Below are positions 3,471 through 61,754 of a stretch of 64,000 nt of DNA, piece by piece. Below the pieces are notes generated by a model. The model was not told the DNA's origin. It was given only the letters and a program-made list of their open reading frames with translations, and did no database searches. The DNA is from an uncultured beta proteobacterium. GTDB lineage: Bacteria; Pseudomonadota; Gammaproteobacteria; Burkholderiales; Casimicrobiaceae. How positions within the stretch are numbered: the first letter of the stretch is position 1; the number at the start of each line of letters is the position of its first letter. The DNA lies in the NCBI GenBank assembly GCA_963734575.1, contig CAVTHT010000007.1:288549-352548 (forward strand), given 5' to 3'. Made by a program: the position numbers and the translations under genes.

Positions 3471-4884
3471 ATGACGACCCCCGCCGACGTGCTCAAGATG
3501 CTCAAGGAGAAGGAGGTGAAGTTCGTCGACCTCCGCTTCACGGATACCCGTGGCAAGGAGCAGCACGTCTCGGTGCCGACCAAGCAGTTCACGATGGACA
3601 AGTTCGAGAACGGCCACGCCTTCGACGGCTCGTCGATTGCCGGCTGGAAGGGCATCCAGGCTTCCGACATGCTGCTCATGCCGGACGCCGGCACGGCCTA
3701 CATCGATCCGTTCATGGACGAGACCACGCTCAACGTCATGTGCGACGTCGTCGAGCCGTCCGACGGCAAGGGCTATGAGCGCGATCCGCGCTCGCTCGCC
3801 AAGCGCGCCGAGGCGTACCTCAAGTCGACCGGACTGGGCGACACCGCGTACTTCGGTCCCGAACCCGAGTTCTTCATCTTCGACGCCGTCGAGTGGTCGG
3901 TGGACATGTCGGGAAGCTACTGCAAGGTGTTCTCGAGCGAGGCCGCATGGTCGAGCGCCGAGAAGTTCGAAGGCGGCAACATGGGCCACCGGCCGTCGGT
4001 GAAGGGCGGCTACTTCCCCGTGCCCCCGGTCGATCACCTCCAGGACGTGCGCTCCGCGATCTGTCTCGCGCTCGAGCAGATGGGCGTCGAGGTCGAAGTG
4101 CATCACCACGAGGTGGCGAACGCCGGCCAGTGCGAGATCGGCACCAAGTTCGAGACGCTCGTGAAGCGGGCGGACTGGCTGCAGATGCTGAAATACGCGG
4201 TGCACAACACCGCCCATGCGTATGGCAAGACCGCCACGTTCATGCCGAAGCCCATCGTCGGCGACAACGGGTCGGGCATGCACGTGCACCAGTCGATCTG
4301 GAAGGACGGCAAGAACCTCTTCGCGGGCGACGGCTACTCGGGCCTCTCCGAAGCTCGCGCTGTACTACATCGGCGGCGTCATCAAGCACGCGAAGGCGCT
4401 CAATGCGATCACCAATCCGGGCACCAACTCGTACAAGCGTCTCGTGCCCGGCTTCGAGGCCCCGATCAACCTCGCGTATTCGGCACGCAACCGGTCCGCG
4501 GCGATCCGCATTCCTTACGTCACGAACCCGAAGGGCCGGCGCATCGAGGTGCGCTTCCCGGATCCGACGGCGAATCCGTACCTCGCGTTCTCCGCCTTGC
4601 TGATGGCCGGCCTCGACGGCATCCAGAACAAGATCCACCCGGGCGACCCGATGGACAAGAACCTGTACGACCTCGAGCCGGAAGAGGCCGCGCAGGTGCC
4701 GCATCCGTGCGCGTCGCTGGACGAGGCGCTCGATCACCTGGCGCGCGATCGCGAGTTCCTCACGCGCGGCGGCGTGTTCACCAATGACATGCTGGACGGC
4801 TACATGCAGCTCAAGATGGAGGAGGTCACGCGCTTCCGCATGACCACGCATCCGGTCGAGTACGAGATGTATTACAGCCTGTAA
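3471..4884 (+). CDS. glnA: glutamine synthetase type I; frame switch near 4340-4360
   Basis: RBS caggagacagcaATG. N-terminal [33 protein letters not shown]. The C-terminal half continues in the frame of ORF 4216..4884 ([17 protein letters not shown]...[23 protein letters not shown]). Confidence 0.9.
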
Positions 4885-4912
4885 ACCGCGCGCCCGGCGG
4901 GCGCGTTGCTCG
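4885..4912 (+). terminator. weak GC hairpin after glnA, not followed by a T-run
   Basis: ccgcgcgcccggcgggcgcg can form a stem-loop directly after the glnA TAA. Confidence 0.25.
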
Positions 4913-5010
4913 GGGTAAATTAGGGGTGGGTCCTGGCGGGCCCGCCCCTTTTCATGGCCGGCAATCGGCTGCGCTCGGCGGCTCCGCCGGATTTTCTCTA
5001 CACTGCCCCG

Positions 5011-5595
5011 ATGCGCACCCCACCCATCGCTCCTGCTTCCGTGATCCGGTCATCGCGGTGCCGTCTCCTCGTGATGACGCTCGCGCTTACTCTTGGCGGC
5101 GCCGCAGCTGCGGGCGCCGCTACCCTCGGCGACCGTGTCAAGGAGATGCACTGCACGTCGCGCCCGAAGCCGGTGGAAGGCACGATGCTCTACAAGTGCG
5201 ACACCGCTTCGGGCACGTCGTACTTCAGCGTCGAGGGCACGTCGTCGAGTGCAGCACCATCCCCGCGCACGAGCGGCCCGCCTGCGACCGGCAATGGTGC
5301 AGGGACGGTGCCTGCGGTGCGGCCCGGCACCAGTGCGTTCCCGCGCGTCGATGCGGAAACCCAGAAGGGGCGCGACGACGTGCGCCGGCGCGTATTGCAG
5401 GACGAGCTCGCCGCCGAGGAGAAACTGCTCGTGGAAGCACGCACGGCATTCGCCGACGGTGCGCCCGCGCCACTGCCCGAGGAGCGCAGCAGCGCGGACA
5501 AGTATCGCGAGCGCCTCGCGCGCCTGCGCCAGGCCGTCACTCTGCACGAACGCAATGTCGAGGCGCTCAAGAAGGAGATCGGCGGATTGCGTTGA
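5011..5595 (+). CDS. secreted DUF4124-like protein
   Basis: Signal-peptide-like N-terminus (LLVMTLALTLGGAAAAGAA). DUF4124-like core (TMLYKCDTASGTSYFSVEG). It sits in the conserved position between glnA and ntrB. An alternative start lies at 4954. Confidence 0.55.
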   Translation: MRTPPIAPASVIRSSRCRLLVMTLALTLGGAAAAGAATLGDRVKEMHCTSRPKPVEGTMLYKCDTASGTSYFSVEGTSSSAAPSPRTSGPPATGNGAGTVPAVRPGTSAFPRVDAETQKGRDDVRRRVLQDELAAEEKLLVEARTAFADGAPAPLPEERSSADKYRERLARLRQAVTLHERNVEALKKEIGGLR

Positions 5596-48662: not shown

Positions 48663-50891
48663 GAGCGGATGGTGACCTCGCAGGCGTCGCTGTCGCCGAA
48701 CCGCTCGACCTTCACGTCTTCCGTCACGGAGATCCGTGCGTGCGCGCCGTCCATCGCGACCGCCGCCTGCGCGAAGCCATCGAGCGCCTGCGTCGGCCGG
48801 CCGAACAGCCAGAGCTGCGCGAGCGGGCGCGCCGTGTCGATGTCGCCGGTGTGCTGCACCGCGGGTCCCAGCGGCAGCACGTAGCCTTCACGCCCGAAGA
48901 CCGGGAACTGATCGAGCGTCGCGCGGTAGCGCATCACGCGATTGCCGGGCACGCGCTGGCGCGAGTTGAGATCGAACCAGCCGCCCGGCGGCAGCGCGAT
49001 CTCGGCCTCGCCATCGGGCTGCACGATCGGCGCGACGAGGAGCGCATCGCCGCACATGAACTGGGTTTCGCAGCGCCGCGCGAGGGTGCTGCCCGGAAAG
49101 GCGAGCGGCATCGCGCGCATGACCGGCATGCCGGTGCGCGAGGCCTGCTGCAGGACTCGCTCGAGGTACGGCAGCAGGCGGTACCTGAAACGCGATCCAC
49201 TTGCGCGCGATCGCCTCGGCTTGCTCGCCGCCGGCCCACGGCTCGCGCTCCGCCGGCCCGCGCACCACGCAATGCGAGGCGAACAGCGCGGCCTGCAGCC
49301 AGCGCATGCCGAGCTCGGCATCGTGGGGTCCCGCACCATACGTGCCCGGTGCCGCGAAGGCGTGCAGCGGCATGCCGCTCATGCCGAGCGACAGCGCACC
49401 GCGGATCGTCGCGGCGAGCCCCTCCCAGTCGTTCTGCGCGGCGCGGCCCGCGGGCACGGCGGCACGCTGACCCGCGCTCCAGCCGGCACGCGCCACGACG
49501 AGGGGCGGTCCGTCCTGCGGCGCGCGAAAGCGGGCGGCGGCATCGTGCACGCAACGGTTGAACAGCACGGGATAGACGTTGTGCAGGCGCGCGCCGCGCT
49601 CGCCGCCGTGCGCGAACGCATCTTCCGGAACGTGCTCGCCGCCCTCGGTCTGGACGGCATCGACACCCACCGCGAAGAGATCTGCATGGGCATCGCGCCA
49701 CCAGCTCGCCGCCGCGGGGTTGGCGAAATCCACGAGGCCGCAGTCGGGCGGCTGCGCCAGCGCCGACTTGCCGGCCGCCGACGCGTTGCCGAACCATGCG
49801 CCGCTCAGCACGTACGGCCCGCCGTGCGCGGCACGCAGCAGGTAGCCGCGACTCGCGAGCGCCTCGAAGAGCGGCGAATGCACCGACACGTAGGGCGACT
49901 CGCTGACCGCGACGCGAACATCGTGGCGCTTGATGTCGCGCAGTGCTGCGGCGGGCTCGCCGTATCGCGTGGGGTCCCAGTCGAAATCGAAACCGCGTTC
50001 GGTGGTCCACGTCGCAGCCGCATCGAGCGCGATCACGTCGCACGGGATCTTGCGCCGGCGCAGCTGGGCGATGGCCCGCGCCGCATCCTCGGGTGTCGCG
50101 TAGGCGCTGCGCGCGAGCTGCAGCCCCAGGCTCCACAGCGGCACGTCCGGCGCGTGGCCGGTGACCTCGGCGTGGCGCTCGAGGATCGTCGCGGGCGTGT
50201 CGGCGGCGTACAGAAAGAGGTCCAGCGCCTCGTCGTCGACGACGAAGCCGTACGTGCGATGCGACCAGTCCGGATGCCCGACGCCGTGGATCACCGCGCC
50301 GGGCGTGTGCACGAACGCGCCCCACGCCCCCTTGCCACGCCCCGGGCTCCAGGCGAACGGCGTCTCGTGGTGCGCGAGGCCGGCGTTGACGCCCTGCGCG
50401 TCCTGCACCCACGAATGCAGCAGCTGTCCGCGACGATCGAGCGGCCCGTATTTCTCGCCGAGACCATAGACCGGCTCGCCTGCCGCGAGCGCGAAGGCCG
50501 CCATCCACTGGCCACCCTGGCGCACGCGACCGAACGCCGGCAGGCGCGTCGTGCCGTCCGGCAGCTCGTCCTCGATGGAGCCGACGAGCGCGACGCCTTC
50601 GCGCACGAGCCGGAAGGCGAGCGGCGCGCCGCGCAGCTCGAGCGTGGCGTCGCCGCTGCCGAAGCGATAGACGCCGGCTTCCTGCGCGAACGTGCAGGGC
50701 TTTGCGCGCCCCGCGATGAGCCCGTGGTCGGGCCGCGTCTTCGGTCCGATGCGCAGCCGAAATACGCCGGGGCCGAACGACGACACCTCGAGGATGTCGC
50801 CGGTGGACGTTGCGAACGATGCGCCGGCGGACGTCGAGCCGATGCAATGCGGCGCCTCGAGGCGCAGGTACGAGGTGGCGTCGAAAGGCAT
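48659..50891 (-). CDS. glycoside hydrolase family 31 alpha-glucosidase/alpha-xylosidase; one frame switch
   Basis: GEKYGPLDRRGQLLHSWVQDAQG ... VIALDAAATWTTERGFDFDWDPTRY ... C-terminal domain PYLERVLQQASRTGMPVMRAMPLAFPGS. Its stop overlaps the pdxA ATG (ATGA). Confidence 0.8.
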
Positions 50892-51800: not shown

Positions 51801-52726
51801 GCGGCTGCCCGGACGGATATCTCCATCGTACAAGAAAAGGATTCGCCGGCACCCAGCACGCGCGTGCCGGTGTCGCGCTCGCCGCGCTCGGCGCGATTGA
51901 AGGCGTCGGTCATCTGCGTCACCGGCTCGATGGCAAGGAACGTGCCGTGCGGCGGAACGTAGACGACGAAATAGGGACATGCGGTGTCGCCGCGCAGCGT
52001 CGTCACGCGCGCTGCTGCCGGATGACGGAGCTCGGCCGCGCCCTGCCAGCCGGTGTAGACGTTGTCGAGGAAGAGATTGGCGATGCCGCGCGGCGGATCG
52101 AACAGGAACTTGCCGGCGACGGCGGCGTGACGCACGGGCAGGATCGTGTCGTCGGTCTCCCACACGCCTTTCGCACCGAAGCCGAGCGTTGTGTCGGGCG
52201 AGCCGGGGAAGAACGGATGCCAGCCGAGGCCGAACGGGAACGGTCCATCGCCGCGGTTCGTGAGCGTGAGGCGCATGCGCAGCACCGCGTTCGTGTCGTC
52301 GCCACCGAGCTGCAACCACTGCGTCGCGCGGAACGGCCATGGCCATGCGCGTGCATTGGCATCCCCCGTGCCGCTCCTGCGCGGTTCGTGTTCAGAGGCC
52401 AGCAACGCGCTCGTCTCGTCGTGATCGAGCACGTCCCACGGCCGCTGCCAGCCGACGCCATGGATCGCGTGCGGGTGATCGCCGAAGTTGCGGTCGAGCT
52501 GGTGCATCGTGCCGCGGAACGCGAGGCGCCCGCGCTCGATGCGATTCGAGTACGGCACGAGCGGATAGCACGCGTGGCGGCGCACGTCCCCGTCGGCGAT
52601 CGCGTCGGACGGCGTGGCGCGCAGCACCGGTGCGCCCCGCCAGTCGAAGCGCGCGATCGCGCCGCCCGTCGTCGGCGCGAGATCCACGACGGCATCGTCG
52701 TGGCGCAGGGTGAGGAGGGAAGGCAT
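51797..52726 (-). CDS. aldose 1-epimerase family protein
   Basis: YPLVPYSNRI...HAIHGVGWQRPWDVL...GLGWHPFF...; intact. Its stop overlaps the lactonase ATG (ATGA). Confidence 0.7.
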   Translation of the reverse strand: MPSLLTLRHDDAVVDLAPTTGGAIARFDWRGAPVLRATPSDAIADGDVRRHACYPLVPYSNRIERGRLAFRGTMHQLDRNFGDHPHAIHGVGWQRPWDVLDHDETSALLASEHEPRRSGTGDANARAWPWPFRATQWLQLGGDDTNAVLRMRLTLTNRGDGPFPFGLGWHPFFPGSPDTTLGFGAKGVWETDDTILPVRHAAVAGKFLFDPPRGIANLFLDNVYTGWQGAAELRHPAAARVTTLRGDTACPYFVVYVPPHGTFLAIEPVTQMTDAFNRAERGERDTGTRVLGAGESFSCTMEISVRAAA

Positions 52727-52834
52727 GGTCGACGATCGCGGCCAACTGCGGCGCAGGAGATGCGCTCGATTCTACGCGACGGCCCTCGCGCTCGCGCCGG
52801 CACGGTCGTTGCAATCGCGCGCCGCAGCGTGACC

Positions 52835-52840
52835 TATAAT
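52835..52840 (+). promoter_or_regulatory. perfect TATAAT -10 hexamer upstream of azlC; the paired -35 (TTGCAA at 52809) gives a 20-nt spacer, so this is uncertain
   Basis: A perfect AT-rich hexamer in a ~70% GC background, 58 bp upstream of the azlC ATG. Confidence 0.25.
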
Positions 52841-52897
52841 GCGGCTCGACCAGGGAGGCGCCGGCTTCCCTTTTTTGTTGCCCGCGATCACGCTGCC

Positions 52898-53605
52898 ATG
52901 TCACGCGCCTTTTCCGCCAGCGACTTCCGCGAAGGGTTCGTGGAGATGCTGCCCGCGTGCATCGGCCTCATCCCGTTCGGTCTCGTGACGGGTATCGGCG
53001 CTGCGGCGGCCGGTGCAGACTTCTGGGCCGCGCTCGGGATGAGCGCGATCATCTTTTCCGGTGCGGCGCAGGTGCTCGCGGCGCAGCTCTTCGCGAGCGG
53101 TGCGCCGGTCGGCGTCATCATCCTGACGTGTTTCGTGGCCGGCCTGCGCTTCCTGCTCTACAGCGCTGCCATGGCGCCGTACCTGCGGCCGTTGCCCGCG
53201 CGGTGGCAGCAGGGGCTCGCGTTCCTGCTCACCGACCAGGCCTTCGCCGCGTCGATCCGCCGCTTCGACGCGAGCGCCGATCCGCACGCGGGCGCATCGC
53301 ATTTCCTCGGCGGCGGGTCCGCGCTGTGGATCGGCTGGCAGGTGACCAACATCATCGGGTTCTTCGCCGGCGCGTCGATCCCGGCGTCGTGGTCGCTCGA
53401 TTTCGCGGTGCCGCTGTGCTTCCTCGCGCTGGTTGCGCCCGCTTTGCGCAGCTCCGCGCACGTCGCCGCCGCCGTCACCGCGGGCGTGAGCGTGCTGCTG
53501 CTCGGCGGGCTGCCCATGAAGCTCAACTTGATCGCGGCCGGGCTCCTCGGCATCGCCGCGGGCGTGGCCACCGAGTTCGGCCACGCGCGGGCGAAGCGCG
53601 CATGA
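52898..53605 (+). CDS. azlC: branched-chain amino acid exporter component AzlC
   Basis: MSRAFSASDFREGFVEMLPACIGLIPFGLVTGIGAAAAGADFWAALGMSAIIFSGAAQ... Confidence 0.75.
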   Translation: MSRAFSASDFREGFVEMLPACIGLIPFGLVTGIGAAAAGADFWAALGMSAIIFSGAAQVLAAQLFASGAPVGVIILTCFVAGLRFLLYSAAMAPYLRPLPARWQQGLAFLLTDQAFAASIRRFDASADPHAGASHFLGGGSALWIGWQVTNIIGFFAGASIPASWSLDFAVPLCFLALVAPALRSSAHVAAAVTAGVSVLLLGGLPMKLNLIAAGLLGIAAGVATEFGHARAKRA

Positions 53606-53669
53606 GGGCGCCGGGCCGCCCCCAGCCCGAATGCCGGAGCGCGCAGCGCGGGGCACTCCAGTGAGCCCG

Positions 53670-53999
53670 ATGCTGAAGATCTGGGTGGTGATCGTCGTCG
53701 TCGGCGGGCTCAACTACCTTTCGCGCCTGTCGTTCATTGCGCTCTTCTCGCGGCGGAGCATGCCCACCGGCGTGGCGCGGGCGCTCAAGTACGTGCCTGC
53801 TGCGATGCTCACCGCGCTGATCGTCCCGATGATCCTGGCGGCACCTGCGGGCGTGCTGCCGGTCCATCTCAACGCGCGCGTGTGGGCCGCGCTCGTGGCG
53901 GGGGTGGTGGCGTTCCGCACTCGCAGCACGCTCGCGACGCTCGTCACGGGCATGGCGACGCTGTGGATTCTCGAGGCCACGGTCCTGCCCGCGGCCTGA
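53670..53999 (+). CDS. azlD: AzlD-family small membrane protein
   Basis: MLKIWVVIVVVGGLNYLSRLSFIALFSRRSMPTGVARALKYVPAAMLTALIVPMIL. Downstream partner of azlC. Confidence 0.6.
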   Translation: MLKIWVVIVVVGGLNYLSRLSFIALFSRRSMPTGVARALKYVPAAMLTALIVPMILAAPAGVLPVHLNARVWAALVAGVVAFRTRSTLATLVTGMATLWILEATVLPAA

Positions 54000-54047
54000 C
54001 CGGGGCGCTGCCATCGGCTAACATTGCAGTTCTCCCCCGGAGATCCC

Positions 54048-54893
54048 ATGCGCTTCGAAGGCACCGACACGTACGTCGCCACCCCGGACCTGATGCTCGC
54101 GGTCAACGCGGCGATCGCGCTCGAGCGTCCGCTGCTCGTCAAGGGCGAGCCGGGGACCGGCAAGACGATGCTCGCCGAGGAAGTCGCGCGCTCGCTGCAG
54201 CGACCCCTCTACCAGTGGCACGTCAAGTCCACGACCAAGGCGCAGCAGGGCCTGTACGAGTACGACGCCGTGTCGCGGCTGCGCGATTCGCAGCTCGGCG
54301 ATGGCCGCGTGGCCGACATCGCGAACTACATCAAGCGCGGCGTGCTGTGGGAGGCGTTCGAGGCGGAGACCCCGGCCGTCGTGCTGATCGACGAGGTGGA
54401 CAAGGCCGACATCGAGTTTCCGAACGACCTCCTGCGCGAGCTCGACCGCATGGAGTTCTACGTCTACGAGACGCAGCAGACCATCCGGGCGCGGCATCGG
54501 CCCCTCGTCGTCATCACCAGCAACAACGAGAAGGAGCTGCCCGACGCCTTCCTGCGCCGCTGCTTCTTCCATTACATCCGCTTCCCCGATCGCGAGACCA
54601 TGACGCGCATCGTCGACGTGCACTTCCCGGGGCTCAAGAAGGCTCTGCTGCAGGAGGCGCTGGAGGTGTTCTTCAACCTGCGCGACGTGCCGGGACTGAA
54701 GAAGCGGCCGTCGACGTCCGAGCTCCTCGACTGGCTCAAGCTGCTGCTCGCCGAGGACATCCCGCCGGAGGCGCTGCACAGCACCGACCGCAAGGTGCTG
54801 ATCCCGCCGCTGCACGGGGCGCTGCTCAAGAACGAGCAGGACGTGCATCTCTTCGAGCGCGTCGCCTTCATGGCCCGCGCCGGCAGGAGCTGA
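54048..54893 (+). CDS. MoxR-like AAA+ ATPase (AAA_5 / CoxD-NorQ-CbbQ type)
   Basis: LLVKGEPGTGKTMLAEEVA (Walker A), VLIDEVDKAD (Walker B), arginine finger region; intact. Confidence 0.8.
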   Translation: MRFEGTDTYVATPDLMLAVNAAIALERPLLVKGEPGTGKTMLAEEVARSLQRPLYQWHVKSTTKAQQGLYEYDAVSRLRDSQLGDGRVADIANYIKRGVLWEAFEAETPAVVLIDEVDKADIEFPNDLLRELDRMEFYVYETQQTIRARHRPLVVITSNNEKELPDAFLRRCFFHYIRFPDRETMTRIVDVHFPGLKKALLQEALEVFFNLRDVPGLKKRPSTSELLDWLKLLLAEDIPPEALHSTDRKVLIPPLHGALLKNEQDVHLFERVAFMARAGRS

Positions 54894-54903
54894 CGGGCCC
54901 GCC

Positions 54904-55518
54904 GTGGCCTTCGTCGATCCCGTCGTGCTCGCCGGCCGGCGCGTGACGCTGGAGCCGCTCGCGCACGGGCACGAAGCGGCACTGCGTGCGGCCGCGTCCG
55001 ACGGCGCGCTGTGGAACCTCTGGTACACCTCCGTGCCTTCGCCCGAGCGGGTCGGCGCGTACATCGAGACCGCACTCGACATGCGCGATCGCCTCGGCGC
55101 GATGCCGTTCGTGGTGCGCGACAACGCCGAGGACGCGATCGTCGGCACCACGCGCTATTTCAACGTCGAGGCGACGCACCGGCGCCTGGAGATCGGCCAC
55201 ACGTGGTACGCGAAGCGCGTGCAGCGCACCGCCGTCAACACGGAGTGCAAGCTGCTGCTGCTGGGTCACGCCTTCGAGCAGCTCGGCTGCATCGCCGTCG
55301 AGTTCCGCACCAGCGCGTTCAACTTCGCCTCGCGCGAGGCGATCGCACGCCTCGGCGCGAAACAGGACGGCATCCTGCGCAATCACATGCTGCTGCCCGA
55401 TGGCACGCGGCGCGACACCGTGGTGTTCAGCATCCTCGACAACGAGTGGCCGGCGGTGCGCAGGCACCTCGCCTGGCGCCTCGAGCGCCACGGCGGCGCC
55501 GGGGTCGGCCGCGAATAG
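54904..55518 (+). CDS. GNAT-family N-acetyltransferase (RimJ/RimL-like)
   Basis: VTLEPLAHGHEAALRAAASDGALWNLWY...RRLEIGHTWYAKRVQRTAVNTECKLLLLGHAFEQLGCIAVEFRTSAFNFASREAIARLG. Confidence 0.75.
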   Translation: MAFVDPVVLAGRRVTLEPLAHGHEAALRAAASDGALWNLWYTSVPSPERVGAYIETALDMRDRLGAMPFVVRDNAEDAIVGTTRYFNVEATHRRLEIGHTWYAKRVQRTAVNTECKLLLLGHAFEQLGCIAVEFRTSAFNFASREAIARLGAKQDGILRNHMLLPDGTRRDTVVFSILDNEWPAVRRHLAWRLERHGGAGVGRE

Positions 55519-55526
55519 AGGCGGCC

Positions 55527-56702
55527 ATGCTGGTCGACTTCTTCCTGCATCTCAAGTCCGCGCGCCTGCCGGTCTCCACGCGCGAATTCCTAACTCTGCT
55601 CGAGGCGCTGGACGAGCGGGTGGTGTCACTCTCGCTCGACGACTTCTACGTGCTCGCGCGCACGTGCCTCGTGAAGGACGAGGCGCATTTCGACCGCTTC
55701 GATCTCGCGTTCGGCTCGTACTTCAAGGGCATCAACGCGATCTTCGACATTCGCGCCGAGATCCCGGACGCGTGGCTGCGCAAGGAGTTCGAGCGCCATC
55801 TCAGCGCCGAGGACAAGGCGAGGATCGAGGCGCTCGGGGGTCTCGACAAGCTCATGGAGACGTTCAAGCAGCGCCTCGCCGAGCAGAAGGAGCGCCATGC
55901 CGGCGGCTCCAAGTGGATCGGCACGGGTGGGACGAGTCCCTTCGGCGCGTACGGCTACAACCCGGAGGGCATCCGCATCGGCCAGGTGGGCAGCGGCAAC
56001 CGCAGCGCGGTCAAGGTGTGGGACGAGCGCAGCTTCCGCAATCTCGACGGCGAGGTCGAGCTCAACACGCGCAACCTCAAGATCGCGCTGCGCAAGCTGC
56101 GGCGCTTCGCGCGCGAGGGCGTGCCCGAGGAGCTCGATCTCGAGGGCACGATCGAAGGCACCGCGAAGAACGCGGGGTGGCTCGATCTCCACCTCATGCC
56201 CGAGCGGCGCAACCGCATCAAGGTGCTGCTCTTCCTCGACGTCGGCGGCTCGATGGATCCGCACGTGCGTGCCTGCGAGGAGCTCTTCTCGGCGGCGAAG
56301 AGCGAGTTCCGGCACCTCGAGTACTTCTACTTCCACAACTGCGTCTACGACCACGTGTGGCGCGACAACGGCCGGCGCCGCAACGAGCGGAGGTCGACCC
56401 TGGAGATCCTGCGCACCTACGGCCCGGACTGGAAGCTCATCTTCGTCGGTGACGCCGCGATGAGCCCGTACGAGCTCATGGAGGTCGGCGGCAGCGTCGA
56501 GTACAGCAACGACGAGCCCGGGGTCGTGTGGCTCACGCGCCTCGTCGAGCATTTCCGGCGCGCCATCTGGTGGAATCCCGAGCCGCCACGCGCGTGGGAG
56601 TACACGCGCTCGACCCAGATCATCCAGCAGGTGCTGGGACCGCGCATGTTCCCGCTGACCCTCGACGGGGTGGGGCAGGGCATCGACGCCCTGCGACACT
56701 GA
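55527..56702 (+). CDS. VWA-domain protein, CoxE-like; partner of the MoxR ATPase
   Basis: MLVDFFLHLKSARLPVSTREFLTLLEAL...VLLFLDVGGSMDPH (MIDAS DxSxS)... Confidence 0.8.
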   Translation: MLVDFFLHLKSARLPVSTREFLTLLEALDERVVSLSLDDFYVLARTCLVKDEAHFDRFDLAFGSYFKGINAIFDIRAEIPDAWLRKEFERHLSAEDKARIEALGGLDKLMETFKQRLAEQKERHAGGSKWIGTGGTSPFGAYGYNPEGIRIGQVGSGNRSAVKVWDERSFRNLDGEVELNTRNLKIALRKLRRFAREGVPEELDLEGTIEGTAKNAGWLDLHLMPERRNRIKVLLFLDVGGSMDPHVRACEELFSAAKSEFRHLEYFYFHNCVYDHVWRDNGRRRNERRSTLEILRTYGPDWKLIFVGDAAMSPYELMEVGGSVEYSNDEPGVVWLTRLVEHFRRAIWWNPEPPRAWEYTRSTQIIQQVLGPRMFPLTLDGVGQGIDALRH

Positions 56703-56703
56703 G

Positions 56704-57576
56704 GTGACGCCGGCGCCGGAGCTCCAGGCGGCCGTGCTGGCGGCCCTCGGGGCGGGCGGCGCACCGGCGAGCTGGCGGGTCGCTGCGAACAGCAGCTTCA
56801 ACGCCACTTGGCGCCTCGACTGCGGCGCCGGAAGCTTCTTCGTGAAGTGCGGCCCGCCGGAGCGGCACGCCATGCTCGATGGCGAAGCGGCGGGACTTGC
56901 CGCGCTGGCAGCCACGCGTGCGGTGCGCGTGCCGGCGGTGGCCGCGCTCGGTGGCACGGAGCGCCACGCGTTCCTCGCGCTGGAGTGGCTGAATCTGGTC
57001 CGCGGTGGGTGCGACGCCGCGCTCGGCCGGGCGCTGGCTGCGCTGCATCGCTGCACGTCCGAGCGCTTCGGCTGGACGCGCGACAACACGATCGGCAGCA
57101 CGCCGCAGGAGAACGCGTGGTCGGCAACGTGGATGGAGTTCTTCCGCGATCGCCGTCTTGCACCGCAGTTCCGGCGCGCGCGGGACCGCGGCGTCCGCGA
57201 GCTTACCGACGCGGGTGAGCGCTTGCTCGCGCGGGTGCCCGCACTGCTCGCCGGGCATCAACCCCGACCGTCGCTGTTGCACGGCGACCTGTGGTCCGGC
57301 AATGCCGGGCGGCTGCAGGACGGCACCCCCGTGGTGTTCGACCCCGCGGTGTATTTCGGCGATCGCGAAGCCGATCTCGCCATGACCGAGCTCTTCGGCG
57401 GCTTCGGGCCCGACTTCCATGCGGCGTATCGGGAAGCCTGGCCGCTCGACCCGGGCTACGCCACGCGGCGCACGCTCTACAACCTCTACCACGTGCTCAA
57501 CCACTGCAACCTCTTCGGCGGCGGCTACGCGCAACAGGCGCTCGCCATGATCGCCGAGCTGCGCGCGGCCGCGTGA
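56704..57576 (+). CDS. fructosamine/ketosamine-3-kinase family protein
   Basis: SFFVKCGPPERHAMLDGEAAGLAALA...LLHGDLWSGNAG...FDPAVYFGDREADLAMTELFGGF. GTG start 2 nt after the VWA stop. Confidence 0.8.
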   Translation: MTPAPELQAAVLAALGAGGAPASWRVAANSSFNATWRLDCGAGSFFVKCGPPERHAMLDGEAAGLAALAATRAVRVPAVAALGGTERHAFLALEWLNLVRGGCDAALGRALAALHRCTSERFGWTRDNTIGSTPQENAWSATWMEFFRDRRLAPQFRRARDRGVRELTDAGERLLARVPALLAGHQPRPSLLHGDLWSGNAGRLQDGTPVVFDPAVYFGDREADLAMTELFGGFGPDFHAAYREAWPLDPGYATRRTLYNLYHVLNHCNLFGGGYAQQALAMIAELRAAA

Positions 57577-57760
57577 CGGCGCCGCCGGCCCTTCTTCCCG
57601 CGAGGAACCAGCATGGCCGGCGTGATTCACGCGCGGTTCGCTGCATCCAGTCTTGCCTGCGCTACGTACATCGGACACGGCCAGGCGTCGCCAATCGCCG
57701 CCCGGCCGCCGGCGCCAGAACATGGCGTCGCCCGCGAACGTTCGGAGAGGAGATCCAATC

Positions 57761-59294
57761 ATGTCCGCTGCTGCCACCCTGCCCGCCTTCCGGCGCGCGC
57801 TCGCCCCGTTGCTACTCGCGAGCGCCATCGCCGCGGCGTGGGCCCCGCCCACGCACGCCTCGAGCCATCGCGAGGCGCCCTTCATCGCCGGCCTGCCCAA
57901 GGTCGACGCGAGCGACTTCTACATGTTCCGCAGCTACGAGCCGGGCCGCGAGGACTACGTGGTCCTGGTCGCCAACTACATCCCGCTGCAGGATGCCTAC
58001 GGCGGTCCCAACTTCTTCAAGCTGGACGCGAATGCGCTGTACGAGATCCACGTCGTCAACGACGGCGGCGCGCGCGAGAACCTCACGTTCCAGTTCCGGT
58101 TCCAGAACGTGAACGACGACAACCAGCTCACGGTCGGCGGCAAGCAGGTCTCGATCCCGCTGGTGCAGAACGGCGTCAAGGACGTGAACCAGCCCAACGA
58201 CCCGGCGCTCAACGTGCACGAGACGTACACCGTCGACGTCGTCCGCGGCCCGCGCCGTACCGGCAACCGCGCAGCCGGTGACGAACCTCAACACCGGCGG
58301 CACGAGCTTCGACAAGCCGGTCGACAACATCGGCATGAAGACCATCTCGGACTACGTCCGCTACGGCAATCGCCACGTGTGGGATGTCGCGATTCCCGGA
58401 TGCACCGGCGGCGGCCGGGTGTTCGTCGGCCAGCGCAAGGATCCGTTCGTCGTGAACCTCGGCGAGACCTTCGACCTCGTCAACATCAAGTATCCCGCCG
58501 TCGAGCTCAACCCGGCGGCCGAATTCGCGACGGTCGACACGCTGTCCGACAAGAACGTCACCTCGATCATCACTGGAGGTGCCGATCGCGTGCCTCACCG
58601 AAGGCAAGGGCACGGTCATCGGCGCGTGGACGACGCGCGAGCCTTCCCGCAAGCCAGGTGCTCGCGGCGACGGGCGGCAGCGGCCTCGATCCGACGACGC
58701 AAAGCGGCGAGTACGTGCAGGTCTCGCGCCTCGGCATGCCGCTGGTGAACGAGGTCGTCATCGGGCTCAAGGACAAGAACCGCTTCAACGCGAGCGAGCC
58801 CAAGGACGACGCGCAGTTCGCCGACTACGTGACCAACCCGACGCTGCCGGCGCTGATCGAGATCCTGTTCGGCAAGGCCGGCGTGAAAGCGCCGACCAAC
58901 TTCCCGCGCACCGACCTCGTGGCGGCCTTCCTCACCGGCGTGCCGGGCCTCAACCAGCCCGCGAGCGTCACGGCCTCCGAGATGCTGCGTCTCAACACGG
59001 CCATCGCACCGACGCCCGAAGGGCTCGCAGAAGCGCCTCGGCGTGCTCGCCGGCGACAACGCGGGATTCCCGAACGGGCGCCGGCCCGGTGACGACGTCG
59101 TCGACATCGAGCTGCGCGTGGCGATGGGCGTGCTGTGCACGCTGTCGCTCGGCGGCTGCACGCCGGCCGATGCGCCGGCTGGGACGCTGCACTACACGGA
59201 CGGCGCCTACATCACGGACGCGTACTTCTCGGCGGACTTTCCGTTCCTGCGCGCGCCGCATCCCGGGATCGCCGAACGCCGGACAACCCGTTGA
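57761..59294 (+). CDS. secreted DUF4331-family protein; several frame switches
   Basis: RBS ggagaggag then ATG. Signal peptide, then SSHREAPFIAGLPKVDASDFYMFRSY...HVVNDGG, ...LGMPLVNEVVIGLKDKNRFN..., and C-terminal GDNAGFPNGRRPGDDVVDIELRV across frames. Confidence 0.65.
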
Positions 59295-59379
59295 AGGCGA
59301 AGCAGCGCTGACGTAGCGCGAGCGGTGCCGCGCCTCCCGGTGCGGCACCGTCCTTCCTGCATCCGCACGCGAGGTCGCG

Positions 59380-60580
59380 ATGCTCCGTTACCGCTCGTTC
59401 CCCAGGGCTGCACGCCTTGCCGTCGCAGCCCTGCTCTTCTCTCCGTCGTCGCGACCGTAGCGGCGGCGCCGTACACGCCGGCGTCCGACGACGTGGTGCT
59501 GGAGCGCCTGCCCGAGAAGCTCGATCCGTCGCTCGCGGAACTGAAGCGCCTGCGCACGGCGCTCGTGCGGCGACCAGACGACACCACTCTCGCCGCACGC
59601 CTCGCGCGGCGCGCGATAGAGGCATCGCGCGAGACCGGTGATCCGCGCTTCCTCGGCCAGGCGCAGGCGGCACTGGCGCCATGGTGGAACGCGCCGGACG
59701 CGCCGGTGGACATCGTGGTGCTGCGCGCGACGATCCGCCAGAGCCTGCACGACTTCCCCGCAGCGCTCGCGCGATCTCGATCGCGTGCTGGCGATCGCAC
59801 CCGCGCACGGCGCAGGCGCGGCTCACCCGCGCCACCGATGCTCACCGTGGTCGGCCGCTACGACGAGGCGACGCGCGACTGCGACGCGCTCGCGCGCCTC
59901 GCCGTCGAGCTCGTGACTCGCGCGTGCCGTGCGGCACCCGCCAGCCTCGACGGACGCGCGGCGGAAGCGTACGCAAGCCTGGCGAGCGCCCTGCAGCGCA
60001 CCCGGCGCGACCACGCCGGAGCTGGCCGCGTGGGGCCATACCCTCGCCGCGGAGATCGCCGCACGCCGCGGCGACGCGACCGCCGCGGAGGCGCACTTCC
60101 GGCAGGCACTCGCCGCCGATCCGCGCGATGCCTACCTGCGCGGCGCGTACGCCGATTTCCTGCTCGATCGCGGCCGGCCGCGCGAAGCCGCTGCACTCGT
60201 CGCGGGCGAGCTGCGCAACGACGGTCTCCTGCTGCGCCTCGCCCTCGCGGAAACGCGCTTCACCGATGCGACAGCGGAGAGCGGCGCGCTGCCGCCGACA
60301 TCGCGAGGACCTCGCTGCCCGCTTCGATGCGTCGCGGCGCGCGGCGATATCGTGCACCGGCGCGAGGAGGCGCGCTATGCGCTGCTGCTCGAAGGCGATG
60401 CCGCCGCGCGCTCTGGCGCTGGCCCGCGCCAACTGGGCGGTGCAGCGCGGAGCCGGCGGACCTGCGCATCCTCGTCGAGGCCGCACGCGCGCGACGAACG
60501 AGCGACGCGCCTCGACGTCGTGCGCCGCTGGCGGCACGACGCACCGACTGCGACGACGTCGCGGTGGTCGCCGCACTGGG
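59380..60580 (+). CDS. TPR-repeat protein with signal peptide; frame switches, 3' end not resolved
   Basis: MLRYRSFPRAARLAVAALLFS..., then TPR-like repeats (GDPRFLGQAQAALAPWWNAPD..., AEAHFRQALAADPRDAYLRGAYADFLLDRGRPREAAALV). Confidence 0.5.
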
Positions 60581-60591
60581 AGAGCGCGCGC

Positions 60592-61754
60592 ATGAAGCGC
60601 ATCGATGCGCTGCTCGCCGTGCTCGCTGCTGGCGTGCCACGTTCGCGACCGGCGGCGCTCGCGCACAAGCCGAGCGACAGCTATCTCACGCTGAAGCGCG
60701 ACGGCGCGGCGTGCAGGGCCGCTGGGACATCGCGCTGCGCGACCTCGACGCCGCGCATCGGCCTCGACGCCAACGGCGACGGCGAGATCACCTGGGGCGA
60801 GCTGCGCGCGCGCGCGCGCGGCGATCGCCGCGTACGCCCTGTCGCGCCTGGCGCTGCGCTCCGGCGGCGAGCCGTGCGCGCTGCCACGTCGCGCAGCTGC
60901 GTGGATCACCACACCGACGGCGCCTACGCGGTGCTCGAGCTCGTCGGCGACTGCCCGCAGCGGCCCGCACGCTCGACAGTCGAGCTATCGGCCTGCTGTT
61001 CGACATCGACCCGCAGCATCGCGGACTGCTGCAGTTCGTGGAGCGCGGGCGGCACGCACCAGCGTGGTCTTCGCCGGCGGACCGCGCCGCGACAGGTCGT
61101 CGGCGGCGAGCCGGCGGCGCGCTGCGCAGTTCCGCCACCTACGTGCGCGAAGGCGTGTGGCACATCTGGCTCGGCGTTCGACCACATCCTGTTCCTGCTG
61201 TCGCTGCTGCTGCCCGCGGTGCTCGTGCGCCGCGACGCGGCGCTGGCAGCCGGCGGCGTCGTTCCGTGCCGCGTTCGTCGACGTGCGAAGGTCGTCACCG
61301 CGTTCACGCTCGCGCACTCGATCACGCTGTCGCTCGCGGCGCTCGGCGTCGTTGCGCTGCCGTCGCGCTGGGTGGAGTCGGCGATCGCGCTCTCGGTGGT
61401 GCTCGCCGCGCTCAACAACCTGCTTCCCGCTCGTGCGCCAAGCGACGCTGGATCGCCGCATTCGCGTTCGGCCTCGTGCACGGCTTCGGCTTCGCGGGCG
61501 CGCTGCGCGGATCTCGGCCTGCCGTCGGGCTCGCTCGCGCTTTCGCTCGCCGGCTTCAACCTCGGCGTCGAGCTCGGCCAGCTCGCGATCGTCGCGGCGT
61601 TCCTGCCGCTCGGCGTTCGCGTTGCGCGCGACGTCGCGCCTACCGCCGCGTCGCGCTTGCCGGCGGCTCCGCGGTCATCGCCGCGGTCGCGGCGGTGTGG
61701 CTCGTCGAGCGCGCGTTCGACGTGCCGGTGTTCGCCGCGTTCGCCGCGTCCTGA
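60592..61754 (+). CDS. HupE/UreJ_2-family putative metal (Ni/Co) transporter with an N-terminal periplasmic domain; frame switches
   Basis: RBS gggagag then ATG. MKRIDALLAVLAAG...AHKPSDSYLTLK..., then TM core HILFLLSLLLPAVLV, KVVTAFTLAHSITLSLAALGVVALP, FAFGLVHGFGFAGAL, and LSLAGFNLGVELGQLAIVAAFLPL. Confidence 0.65.

Follow-up and report, generated by a model that had tools for sequence, protein, structure and literature searches.

The MoxR ATPases include a subfamily named after PA2707 of Pseudomonas aeruginosa, with CoxD entered as a separate subfamily. In P. aeruginosa, the gene stands in the context PA2709 (cysK), PA2708 (DUF748) and PA2707 (MoxR). Members of the PA2707 subfamily are single-module AAA+ proteins of ~280 residues with a dedicated VWA gene (~390 residues) downstream, and the sole phenotype record that we found for them is that of a PA2706 transposon mutant, whose colony morphotype was unstable and which survived less well in mouse airways. 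NorQ/NorD, of the CGN subfamily, inserts FeB, a non-haem iron, into cytochrome c nitric oxide reductase, and to our knowledge no other MoxR/VWA couple has a mechanism worked out from structures. In that mechanism, a finger of the VWA protein enters the pore of the ring and a linker is remodelled (PMC13036017, PMC9976466). The CGN subfamily, which also takes in CbbQ/CbbO, is expected to show such a finger in the ATPase pore together with a contact at the C-terminus. CoxD/CoxE, which acts in CO dehydrogenase (CODH) maturation, likewise sets a MoxR-class ATPase beside a protein that matches Pfam VWA_CoxE.

The window studied here, a stretch of 64,000 nucleotides, carries a MoxR/VWA locus at 54048–57576, where all four open reading frames listed in a first-pass annotation are present on the + strand. 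The four families that it named (MoxR, GNAT, VWA and fructosamine kinase) are borne out by Pfam matches and motifs, and it was also right to describe a MoxR/VWA pair split by a GNAT gene in a tightly spaced run downstream of azlCD. The locus comprises a MoxR-class AAA+ ATPase gene (54048–54893, +; 281 aa), a GNAT N-acetyltransferase gene (54904–55518, +; 204 aa, GTG start), the gene for a VWA-domain partner of the ATPase (55527–56702, +; 391 aa, ATG start) and a gene for a fructosamine/ribulosamine-3-kinase homologue, FN3K (56704–57576, +; 290 aa, GTG start). Gene calls in the nearest relatives agree with all four start codons. The intergenic gaps are 10 nt from the MoxR stop to the GNAT start, 8 nt from the GNAT stop to the VWA ATG and 1 nt from the VWA TGA to the FN3K GTG. 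Upstream lie azlC (~52880–53605, +; Pfam AzlC, 1.9e-31) and azlD (53631–53999, +; Pfam AzlD, 1.3e-22), the latter ending 48 nt before the MoxR ATG; we treat them as context, and among the loci compared they adjoin MoxR in the window's clade only. The wider neighbours are GH31, SGL, aldose epimerase, azlCD, DUF4331, TPR and HupE/UreJ genes. A search of 52500–58200 for sigma-70-like promoters found none, and the same scan returned four terminator-like sites against 2.2 expected by chance. Three of these lie upstream, within or before azlC, and the only one inside or between the four genes is a weak match at 55522–55536, spanning the GNAT–VWA gap and the start of the VWA gene. The close spacing of the four genes suggests that they are co-transcribed.

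The MoxR protein matches Pfam AAA_5 (1.1e-12, profile positions 1–138 of 139) and AAA (3e-12), and its translation retains intact Walker A (GEPGTGKT) and Walker B (VVLIDEVD) motifs. It is a single AAA+ module of ~280 aa of the MoxR/AAA_5 type, as in the PA2707 subfamily. Identity is 91–96% within the window's clade, 73–83% to other Betaproteobacteria and 69–74% to Pseudomonas, Halomonas and Acinetobacter (70–71% for Pseudomonas spp.), and the Pseudomonas orthologues lie in the order PALP–DUF748–MoxR–VWA. Because these orthologues share the cysK–DUF748–MoxR–VWA context of PA2709–PA2707, we assign the MoxR–VWA pair to the PA2707 subfamily and not to CoxD/CoxE; orthology to PA2707 was drawn indirectly, through the Pseudomonas spp. 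proteins and their neighbours rather than through the PAO1 sequence itself. The VWA gene is downstream of MoxR on the same strand, here with the 615-nt GNAT gene in between. The locus departs from the subfamily pattern in this GNAT gene amid the partners, in the FN3K gene after VWA, and in its neighbours, which are azlCD instead of DUF748 and cysK. The remark that the locus is not recognisable as a described system does not hold, as its core pair belongs to a subfamily that is described, albeit uncharacterised. The protein falls well short of the NCBIfam equivalog for the MadB family (NF047784; 112.7 bits against a cut-off of 475), and we found no literature that treats MadB and MoxR together.

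The VWA protein had been called ‘CoxE-like’, which stands only as far as a weak Pfam match to VWA_CoxE (2.8e-08, 33.9 bits against a cut-off of 26.4) that is confined to profile positions 6–101 of 222. The group itself is PA2707; a CoxD/CoxE identity was rejected, as CoxD forms a subfamily apart and neither coxMSL nor other CODH genes occur in the neighbourhood of the locus. Homology searches gave 3991 representatives at E ≤ 1e-3, of which 534 also pass E ≤ 1e-30. Where the canonical VWA motif reads DxSxS, this protein reads DVGGS; among 34 homologues, the most distant at 34% identity, D238 and G241 never vary and G240 and S242 hardly do. With this motif, any metal-dependent binding of the client may work differently. 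An AF2 model (pLDDT 73) comprises helices over residues 1–120, a low-confidence stretch at 122–176 and alternating strands and helices at 190–391, a predicted architecture of an N-terminal helical domain, a disordered linker and a C-terminal VWA fold. The top Foldseek match of this model in the PDB is NorD in the NorQD complex, at a weak score (9qhe_G; E 9e-4, TM 0.25/0.38, 11% identity). The presumed logic of a MoxR hexamer with a VWA adaptor is shared with NorQ/NorD. The ATPases belong to distinct MoxR subfamilies, and the VWA protein here is shorter than NorD and differs from it in reading DVGGS in place of DxSxS. Neither the surroundings of the locus nor the related loci that we sampled contain nor genes or the RuBisCO cbb genes that would be the clients of CbbQ/CbbO.

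Of 84 related loci that we compared across the Beta- and Gammaproteobacteria, 79 have MoxR on the same strand as VWA and upstream of it, and in 58 of these 79 the two genes are immediate neighbours (gap ≤200 nt, no gene between); the same adjacency is seen in Acinetobacter baumannii. Between the two classes, MoxR is ~70–80% and VWA ~60% identical, and the pairwise divergences of the two proteins are correlated (Spearman 0.73). This upstream position, adjacency and correlated divergence identify the PA2707-type MoxR and VWA as a conserved pair. The reading that we favour, and consider reasonably probable, is that the conserved unit consists of these two genes, a PA2707-subfamily MoxR and its dedicated 391-aa VWA partner, with GNAT and FN3K as co-transcribed passengers. 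By analogy with NorQ/NorD, MoxR would form a hexameric ring onto which the VWA protein docks, its MIDAS-like face holding a putative client, and ATP hydrolysis by MoxR would remodel adaptor and client. In NorQ/NorD, a step of this kind lets a cofactor or metal be inserted or a complex mature. Binding between the ATPase and the VWA protein, and the existence of a client, are extrapolated here from other MoxR/VWA pairs.

The GNAT (Pfam Acetyltransf_3, 2.8e-14) is RimJ/RimL-like and PacT/PA3270-like. It scores 18.7 bits against 190 for the NCBIfam equivalog of RimJ, the ribosomal protein S5 alanine N-acetyltransferase, and its sequence places it in the broad Acetyltransf_3 family only. A Q-R-T-x-x-N-T stretch conserved across the aligned GNATs is a putative acetyl-CoA-binding motif. 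Among solved structures, those nearest to it are PacT-family toxins (8gxf, 3.5e-27; 8gxk; 8gxj; 1yre, which is PA3270, 3e-23), a likeness that puts it in the same GNAT subfamily by sequence and raises the question of a conflict system, in which the GNAT would be a PacT-like toxin that acetylates aminoacyl-tRNA or, alternatively, MoxR–VWA would be an NTP-dependent defence component. The variability of the GNAT amid conserved flanks would fit, and MoxR–VWA modules are reported from conflict systems (PMC7159879). The PacTA-type family is defined by a GNAT toxin with an adjacent HTH (Xre/AraC) antitoxin gene (PMC9561280), but the GNAT here has no antitoxin gene of the Xre, AraC or RHH type next to it. 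It lies within an operon of housekeeping-like genes, with MoxR 10 nt and VWA 8 nt away. Of the four proteins, PADLOC matched MoxR alone, and that only as a generic P-loop protein; MoxR also scores below the Pfam bpMoxR cut-off (17.3 against 27 bits). MoxR and VWA, at ~60–80% identity across two proteobacterial classes and seemingly vertical in descent, show the opposite of a defence-island pattern. We find a toxin or conflict role scarcely credible.

Of 86 loci centred on VWA, 15 have a GNAT gene embedded between MoxR and VWA (13 among the first 84), and Ralstonia has one there as well. Carriers of this trio, with gaps no longer than some tens of nucleotides, are Ralstonia, Cupriavidus, Polaromonas, Curvibacter and the window's clade, at a VWA identity of only 57–61% between that clade and the other four, so this part of the gene order does extend beyond the genome in which it was first noted. 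Conserved operon membership of this sort is the usual sign of a functional link. It argues for the GNAT as a true third component of the Burkholderiales MoxR–VWA system, whose acetylation target could be, for example, the client, a cofactor precursor or the VWA adaptor, with FN3K unrelated. Searches centred on the GNAT also lend this some weight: MoxR and/or VWA lie within 4 kb in 13 of the 21 loci with full 4-kb flanks, rearranged ones included. The other eight fully flanked loci, with neither gene within 4 kb, count against it. Of 63 GNAT-centred metagenome loci with room for it, only ~25 have MoxR upstream on the same strand, mostly directly adjacent, which speaks against an obligate GNAT. 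So do the 69 of the first 84 VWA-centred loci that lack the GNAT; on the tree, such relatives are scattered among GNAT-bearing ones and include close Burkholderiales (L054, L058 and L082). In a recurrent alternative order, SGL–GNAT–GMC oxidoreductase–MoxR(−)/VWA(+), the inverted MoxR rules out co-transcription with the GNAT. In other lineages, unrelated genes fill the same slot, among them GFA (L021 and L029; in some Pseudomonas and Stutzerimonas), UDG (L015) and HDOD (L035).

Divergence of the GNAT is uncoupled from that of VWA (Spearman 0.10, against the value of 0.73 for MoxR and VWA). The N-terminal ~110 residues, which form the acceptor side of the GNAT fold, hold its variation, and the flanking genes remain 85–95% identical; an acceptor half that diverges fast beside a nearly frozen MoxR and VWA is not what a shared, conserved substrate would predict. 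GNAT versions only 43–55% identical also occupy the same slot between flanking genes that are 85–90% identical, perhaps a sign that occupancy of the slot is maintained. Weighing these observations, we regard a third-component role for the GNAT as possible but rather unlikely. In a broader version that we consider improbable, the MoxR–VWA gap would be a functional docking slot for client or modifier genes (GNAT in many Burkholderiales, and GFA, UDG-like or HDOD genes), with the GNAT a real third component whose acetylation is coupled to remodelling and whose acceptor half tracks lineage-specific targets. Because the GNAT is missing from most loci, its slot holds other genes, its orthologues occur elsewhere and its divergence is uncoupled, it is not obligate to the pair. 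Under the favoured two-gene reading, the GNAT would have entered the MoxR–VWA intergenic slot in the ancestor or ancestors of several Burkholderiales lineages, where it would be co-transcribed and most likely act on a substrate of its own.

FN3K is an ordinary member of its family, which includes FN3K, FN3K-RP, the Arabidopsis thaliana protein 6oid and the E. coli YniA-like proteins. It matches Pfam PF03881 (Fructosamin_kin) over almost the full profile (positions 26–285 of 288; 1.5e-96, 323.4 bits against a cut-off of 22.4) and 6oid at 1.9e-57, and its translation holds the catalytic loop HGDLWSGN, of the shared HGDLWxGN form, and DPA. Only its position after the VWA gene is unusual, and this is limited to one sub-clade. 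The first-pass annotation had suggested a single protein-repair module combining acetylation, ketosamine removal via FN3K and ATP-driven remodelling; on this view, all three would act on a common glycated client. The spacing is indeed tight, FN3K starting 1–6 nt past the VWA stop in the window and four relatives (L001, L003, L004 and L085), and the four-gene order recurs in at least five other assemblies. That order is kept among close relatives (VWA ≥83% identical) and does not extend more widely; even within the window's clade, 6 of the 12 informative loci have FN3K next after VWA, and it is absent from L006, L086, L139, L152 and P0351 and lies 5 kb off in L002, with two genes between it and VWA. 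Outside the clade, FN3K is absent from all 78 VWA-centred and all GNAT-centred loci (more than 100 loci), so co-occurrence of FN3K with the pair largely failed to appear in the loci compared. Where MoxR is 91–96% identical within the clade, FN3K is only 61–71% identical, and we found no literature that links FN3K to MoxR or VWA. Together with the many pairs that have no gene between them, the variable GNAT slot and the uncoupled divergence, this leaves one functional four-gene module highly improbable. FN3K is a downstream neighbour outside the conserved system, probably co-transcribed with it to judge from the spacing: an ordinary protein-deglycation kinase that would have come by chance to lie at the 3′ end of the transcription unit in one sub-clade. 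Because the GNAT is limited to some Burkholderiales and FN3K to close relatives, the locus does not encode a four-part repair machine, and no coupling of acetylation, deglycation and remodelling is implied.

The analysis thus drops a tempting ‘deglycation-repair module’ and assigns the locus to the right subfamily. PA2707-type MoxR/VWA pairs are among the most strongly conserved MoxR systems, occurring in Pseudomonas, Acinetobacter and Ralstonia, and they have no established client or function. The neighbours at this locus that resemble clues to the client prove to be lineage-specific. The GNAT-embedded variant is present in the tractable Ralstonia solanacearum/syzygii and in Cupriavidus, where cooperation between the GNAT and the pair could be addressed.

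The cluster in the window consists of four intact, co-directional open reading frames on the forward strand. These encode a MoxR-type AAA+ ATPase of 281 amino acids (54048–54893; Pfam AAA_5/AAA, 1e-12), a GNAT acetyltransferase of 204 amino acids with a GTG start (54904–55518; Acetyltransf_3, 2.8e-14), a VWA-domain protein of 391 amino acids with an ATG start (55527–56702; VWA_CoxE, 2.8e-08) and a fructosamine-3-kinase (FN3K) of 290 amino acids with a GTG start (56704–57576; Fructosamin_kin, 1.5e-96). Translation of MoxR gave a Walker A motif (GEPGTGKT) and a Walker B motif (LIDEVD), and that of FN3K the catalytic loop HGDLWSGN. The upstream neighbours of MoxR are azlC and azlD (by Pfam), with azlD ending 48 nt before MoxR. 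The Pfam families, the coordinates and the gaps of 10 nt (MoxR–GNAT), 8 nt (GNAT–VWA) and 1 nt (VWA–FN3K) bear out the tight packing described in the first-pass annotation. Its label of ‘CoxE-type’ for the VWA protein stands on a match above the cut-off (33.9 against 26.4 bits), but a marginal one that covers less than half of the profile positions. Consensus scans across the region, which are uninformative at its 70% G+C, yielded no promoter-like sites; the sole terminator-like match in or between the four genes was weak and straddled the beginning of VWA, and such matches were about as frequent over the whole scanned region as expected by chance.

Each of the three genes downstream of FN3K (57761–61730), for DUF4331, TPR and HupE/UreJ_2 proteins, matches an intact orthologue at L001, a locus of a close relative, in two reading frames, with switches near 59020, 60009 and ~61440–61600. 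Either these genes are pseudogenes or the assembly carries indels here, long reads being one conceivable source. There may be another frameshift in the GH31 glycosidase gene (48888–50891, reverse strand), which encodes 667 amino acids against 744 in its L001 orthologue; its last ~100 residues are Arg/Ala-rich and resemble out-of-frame sequence. Metal-homeostasis genes (HupE/UreJ_2, NicO, NikR, ZnuA and ABC-3) recur just downstream of the cluster in the window’s clade (window, ~60589–61730; L003, 9443–11920; L004, 8141–9548; L086, 5813–7509). Other MoxR/VWA systems insert metals, and this recurrence may be a hint or a coincidence.

The MoxR–VWA pair is widely conserved. The window VWA protein has thousands of homologues: among 1.8 billion representatives, scanned without a profile, 3,991 matched at E ≤ 1e-3, of which 534 reached E ≤ 1e-30, and full-length relatives (~390 amino acids) extended to ~34% identity. 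The best 120 matches were 81–94% identical, and the nearest relatives are uncultured betaproteobacterial MAGs, some labelled Casimicrobiaceae. Searching one genome per GTDB species with an alignment of 14 VWA sequences returned at least 80 loci, from genera including Pseudomonas, Stutzerimonas, Azotobacter, Halomonas, Paraglaciecola, Kangiella, Thauera, Aromatoleum, Zoogloea, Rhodocyclus, Sulfuritalea, Cupriavidus, Polaromonas and Curvibacter. When neighbours were scored by tblastn of six window proteins against 84 loci, 79 had a co-directional MoxR upstream of VWA, and the gap was no more than 200 nt in 58 of these 79, leaving no gene between the two there.

An additional sample of PLSDB megaplasmids and mislabelled chromosomes added three cases. 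Ralstonia syzygii and R. solanacearum are represented, and the R. syzygii locus, the one of the two examined, is a MoxR–GNAT–VWA trio (79%, 68% and 61% identical to the window, respectively). In Acinetobacter baumannii, a gene annotated ‘AAA family ATPase’ has one annotated ‘VWA domain-containing protein’ immediately after it. That the pairing is not universal follows from Paracoccus ferrooxidans plasmid pFER4 (L168), where no MoxR gene lies within 4 kb of an alphaproteobacterial VWA orthologue (4001–5182; 52% identical), whose flanking genes encode a 74-amino-acid hypothetical protein and an M48 peptidase.

The slot between MoxR and VWA has taken an unusual number of independent insertions for a two-gene operon. 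Besides the GNAT, it holds GFA genes in Pseudomonas indica and Stutzerimonas (L021, 6514–6957; L029, 6561–6953), a UDG-superfamily gene (L015, 6456–7007), an HDOD gene in Thauera (L035, 5563–6957), two ORFs of unknown type (L078, 5923–6997) and, on the opposite strand, OmpA-like and HhH-GPD genes (L069, 4848–6948).

All-against-all clustering of neighbouring ORFs over the 84 loci found no third gene travelling with the pair that might encode its client; the recurrent neighbours were confined to particular lineages. In 13 Rhodocyclales/Comamonadaceae-type loci (L007, L009, L010, L013, L014, L028, L043, L054, L058, L060, L063, L068 and L083; for example, L068 3855–4289), MoxR is preceded at a distance of 1–3 kb by a co-directional DUF1841 gene; the position of this gene is taken by a DUF748 gene in Pseudomonas-type loci, to which DUF748 is confined. 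The pxpABC genes (Pseudomonas) and LysR plus cytochrome c genes (Cupriavidus) each appeared only in the single locus examined. Among the 84 loci, azlCD is upstream of MoxR only in L001–L006. Homologues of azlC and azlD (36–41% identical) also lie downstream of the pair in L117 (5250–6247) and L060 (11725–12713); azlCD is so common that these distant copies are probably there by chance.

Pseudomonas loci have the order PALP enzyme, DUF748 protein, MoxR, VWA, and in the published P. aeruginosa annotation PA2709 is cysK, PA2708 encodes a DUF748 protein and PA2707 encodes a MoxR family ATPase. PA2707 typifies one of seven to nine recognised MoxR subfamilies, separate from CoxD/APE2220 and CbbQ/NorQ. 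As the window MoxR is 70–71% identical to Pseudomonas orthologues in this matching context, we assigned the pair to the PA2707 subfamily, the comparison being with those orthologues and PAO1 PA2707 itself being known by annotation. Membership of the CoxD/CoxE group fails on context, with no CODH genes near the window locus, as does membership of NorQD and CbbQO. A reading as MadB (NCBIfam equivalog) was dropped because the score was far below the cut-off (112.7 against 475 bits) and a literature search was also negative; the window MoxR also fell under the 27-bit cut-off of Pfam bpMoxR, at 17.3 bits. We found no functional study of the PA2707 subfamily in the literature, the only phenotype note being on a PA2706 transposon mutant, whose colony morphotype was unstable and which survived less well in a mouse airway model. 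The pair is of an already-known, functionally uncharacterised kind.

Whether the GNAT belongs with this pair was considered from both sides. By tblastn, it sits between MoxR and VWA in only 13 of the 84 loci (L001–L006, L017, L023, L043 (Curvibacter), L063, L068 (Polaromonas), L077 (Cupriavidus) and L083). This embedded trio does span lineages whose VWA proteins are only ~60% identical, as a functional link would lead one to expect, but most orthologous pairs are without it, including those of Burkholderiales relatives (L054, L058 and L082) that are interspersed with GNAT-bearing loci in the MoxR+VWA tree. A GNAT-centred metagenome scan (at least 80 loci; 21 with full 4-kb flanks and 63 with room) was similarly divided: MoxR and/or VWA lay within 4 kb in 13 of the 21 fully flanked loci, against eight with neither, and only ~25 of the 63 had a co-directional MoxR upstream, in most cases as the immediate neighbour. 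A recurrent metagenome order (L092, L102, L116, L110, L115, L123 and L095; for example, L116 2934–8562) comprises SGL, GNAT and GMC oxidoreductase genes, all on the forward strand, and then an inverted MoxR divergent from a forward VWA, so that the GNAT is not co-transcribable with MoxR there. The window locus, too, has an SGL gene nearby, and the arrangement therefore looks like decayed synteny.

GNAT divergence is, moreover, uncoupled from that of its flanks. Pairwise identities of VWA correlated with those of MoxR (Spearman 0.73) but not with those of the GNAT (0.10). GNAT and VWA identities were 79% and 58% for Ralstonia versus L002, 68% and 82% for Ralstonia versus Cupriavidus, 53–54% and 83% for L005 and L006 versus the window, and 46–48% and 87–90% for L063 and L083 versus L068. 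In sliding windows, GNAT variation was concentrated in the N-terminal ~110 residues, with the C-terminal third conserved, while the 3′ part of MoxR and the 5′ part of VWA were not mosaic. A recombination tract behind the incongruent GNAT tree was therefore not supported, nor was cassette exchange via the flanks, and uneven N-terminal rates within the GNAT are the simpler reading. The N-terminal part of GNATs shapes the acceptor site, and a fast-changing acceptor side beside nearly frozen MoxR and VWA proteins argues against a shared conserved substrate. On balance, we consider a functional link between the GNAT and the pair unlikely, and favour the GNAT being a passenger, probably co-transcribed with the pair but acting on a substrate of its own.

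The closest solved relatives of the window GNAT are PacT-family proteins. PacT itself is a toxin of the GNAT type whose HTH antitoxin is encoded alongside it (PMC9561280); unlike PacT, the window GNAT has no HTH antitoxin gene next to it, its flanking genes being MoxR and VWA. PADLOC gave no match for GNAT, VWA or FN3K, and a defence or toxin–antitoxin reading was rejected on this outcome and on the gene neighbours at 8–10 nt.

FN3K, a well-conserved and ordinary member of its family in the window, was found in only L001–L004 of the 84 VWA-centred loci and was absent at every other sampled locus outside the window’s clade. Gene-called contigs of L001, L003 and L004 carry azlC–azlD–AAA–GNAT–VWA and then FN3K. 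FN3K comes immediately after VWA in the window, in these three loci, in L085 and (partially) in L151, starting 1–6 nt past the VWA stop in all but the last, but is not next after VWA in six other clade loci (L002, L006, L086, P0351, L139 and L152). In L002, it lies 5 kb off behind inserted PAS-domain and histidine-kinase genes, and in L086 a convergent ABC-3/ZnuA operon takes its place. The first-pass annotation had proposed that the four genes form a deglycation-repair module, to be taken as refuted if their order were not conserved beyond this genome. The order recurs in close relatives but is lost at greater distance, where the module is refuted by that yardstick, as FN3K linkage is confined to the immediate clade and to only part of it; what survives of the proposal is the conserved MoxR/VWA pair. 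The locus is a PA2707-type MoxR/VWA pair with a GNAT insert that only certain Burkholderiales have and an FN3K neighbour peculiar to its clade.

An AF2 model of the VWA protein, built on 34 homologues (mean pLDDT 73), predicts, with confidence, a helical domain at the N-terminus (residues 1 to ~120), followed by a low-confidence linker (122–176) and a C-terminal domain of strands alternating with helices (~190–391). A PDB sequence search gave nothing meaningful. With Foldseek, the only PDB match at E ≤ 0.001 was NorD of the NorQD cryo-EM complex (9qhe_G), with classical VWA domains next; many HGPRT and SPT fold matches were set aside as generic Rossmann-like noise. Across the 34 aligned homologues, down to 34% identity, D238, G241 and G308-D309 are invariant and G240 and S242 nearly so. 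The loop at residues 238–242 therefore reads D-V-G-G-S rather than D-x-S-x-S, a family-wide departure from the canonical motif in the predicted MIDAS-like site.

In NorQ/NorD, a VWA finger plugs the hexamer pore and the C-terminus contacts the ring, while ATP hydrolysis remodels the NorD linker and so enables iron insertion into the client; the authors propose this binding mode as general for MoxR/VWA couples (PMC13036017, PMC9976466). The window VWA protein resembles NorD in outline, an N-terminal domain being joined to the VWA domain by a flexible linker, and, like NorD, is encoded with an intact AAA+ module. From this shared architecture and the correlated divergence of MoxR and VWA, a NorQ/NorD-type mechanism is the most likely one for the pair. 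The sequence data show how the genes are paired, which domains they encode and how far they are conserved; it is by analogy with NorQ/NorD that we infer hexamer formation by MoxR, its binding to the VWA protein and the nature of the client. The pair would then use ATP, with the VWA protein as adaptor, to remodel a conserved client encoded elsewhere.
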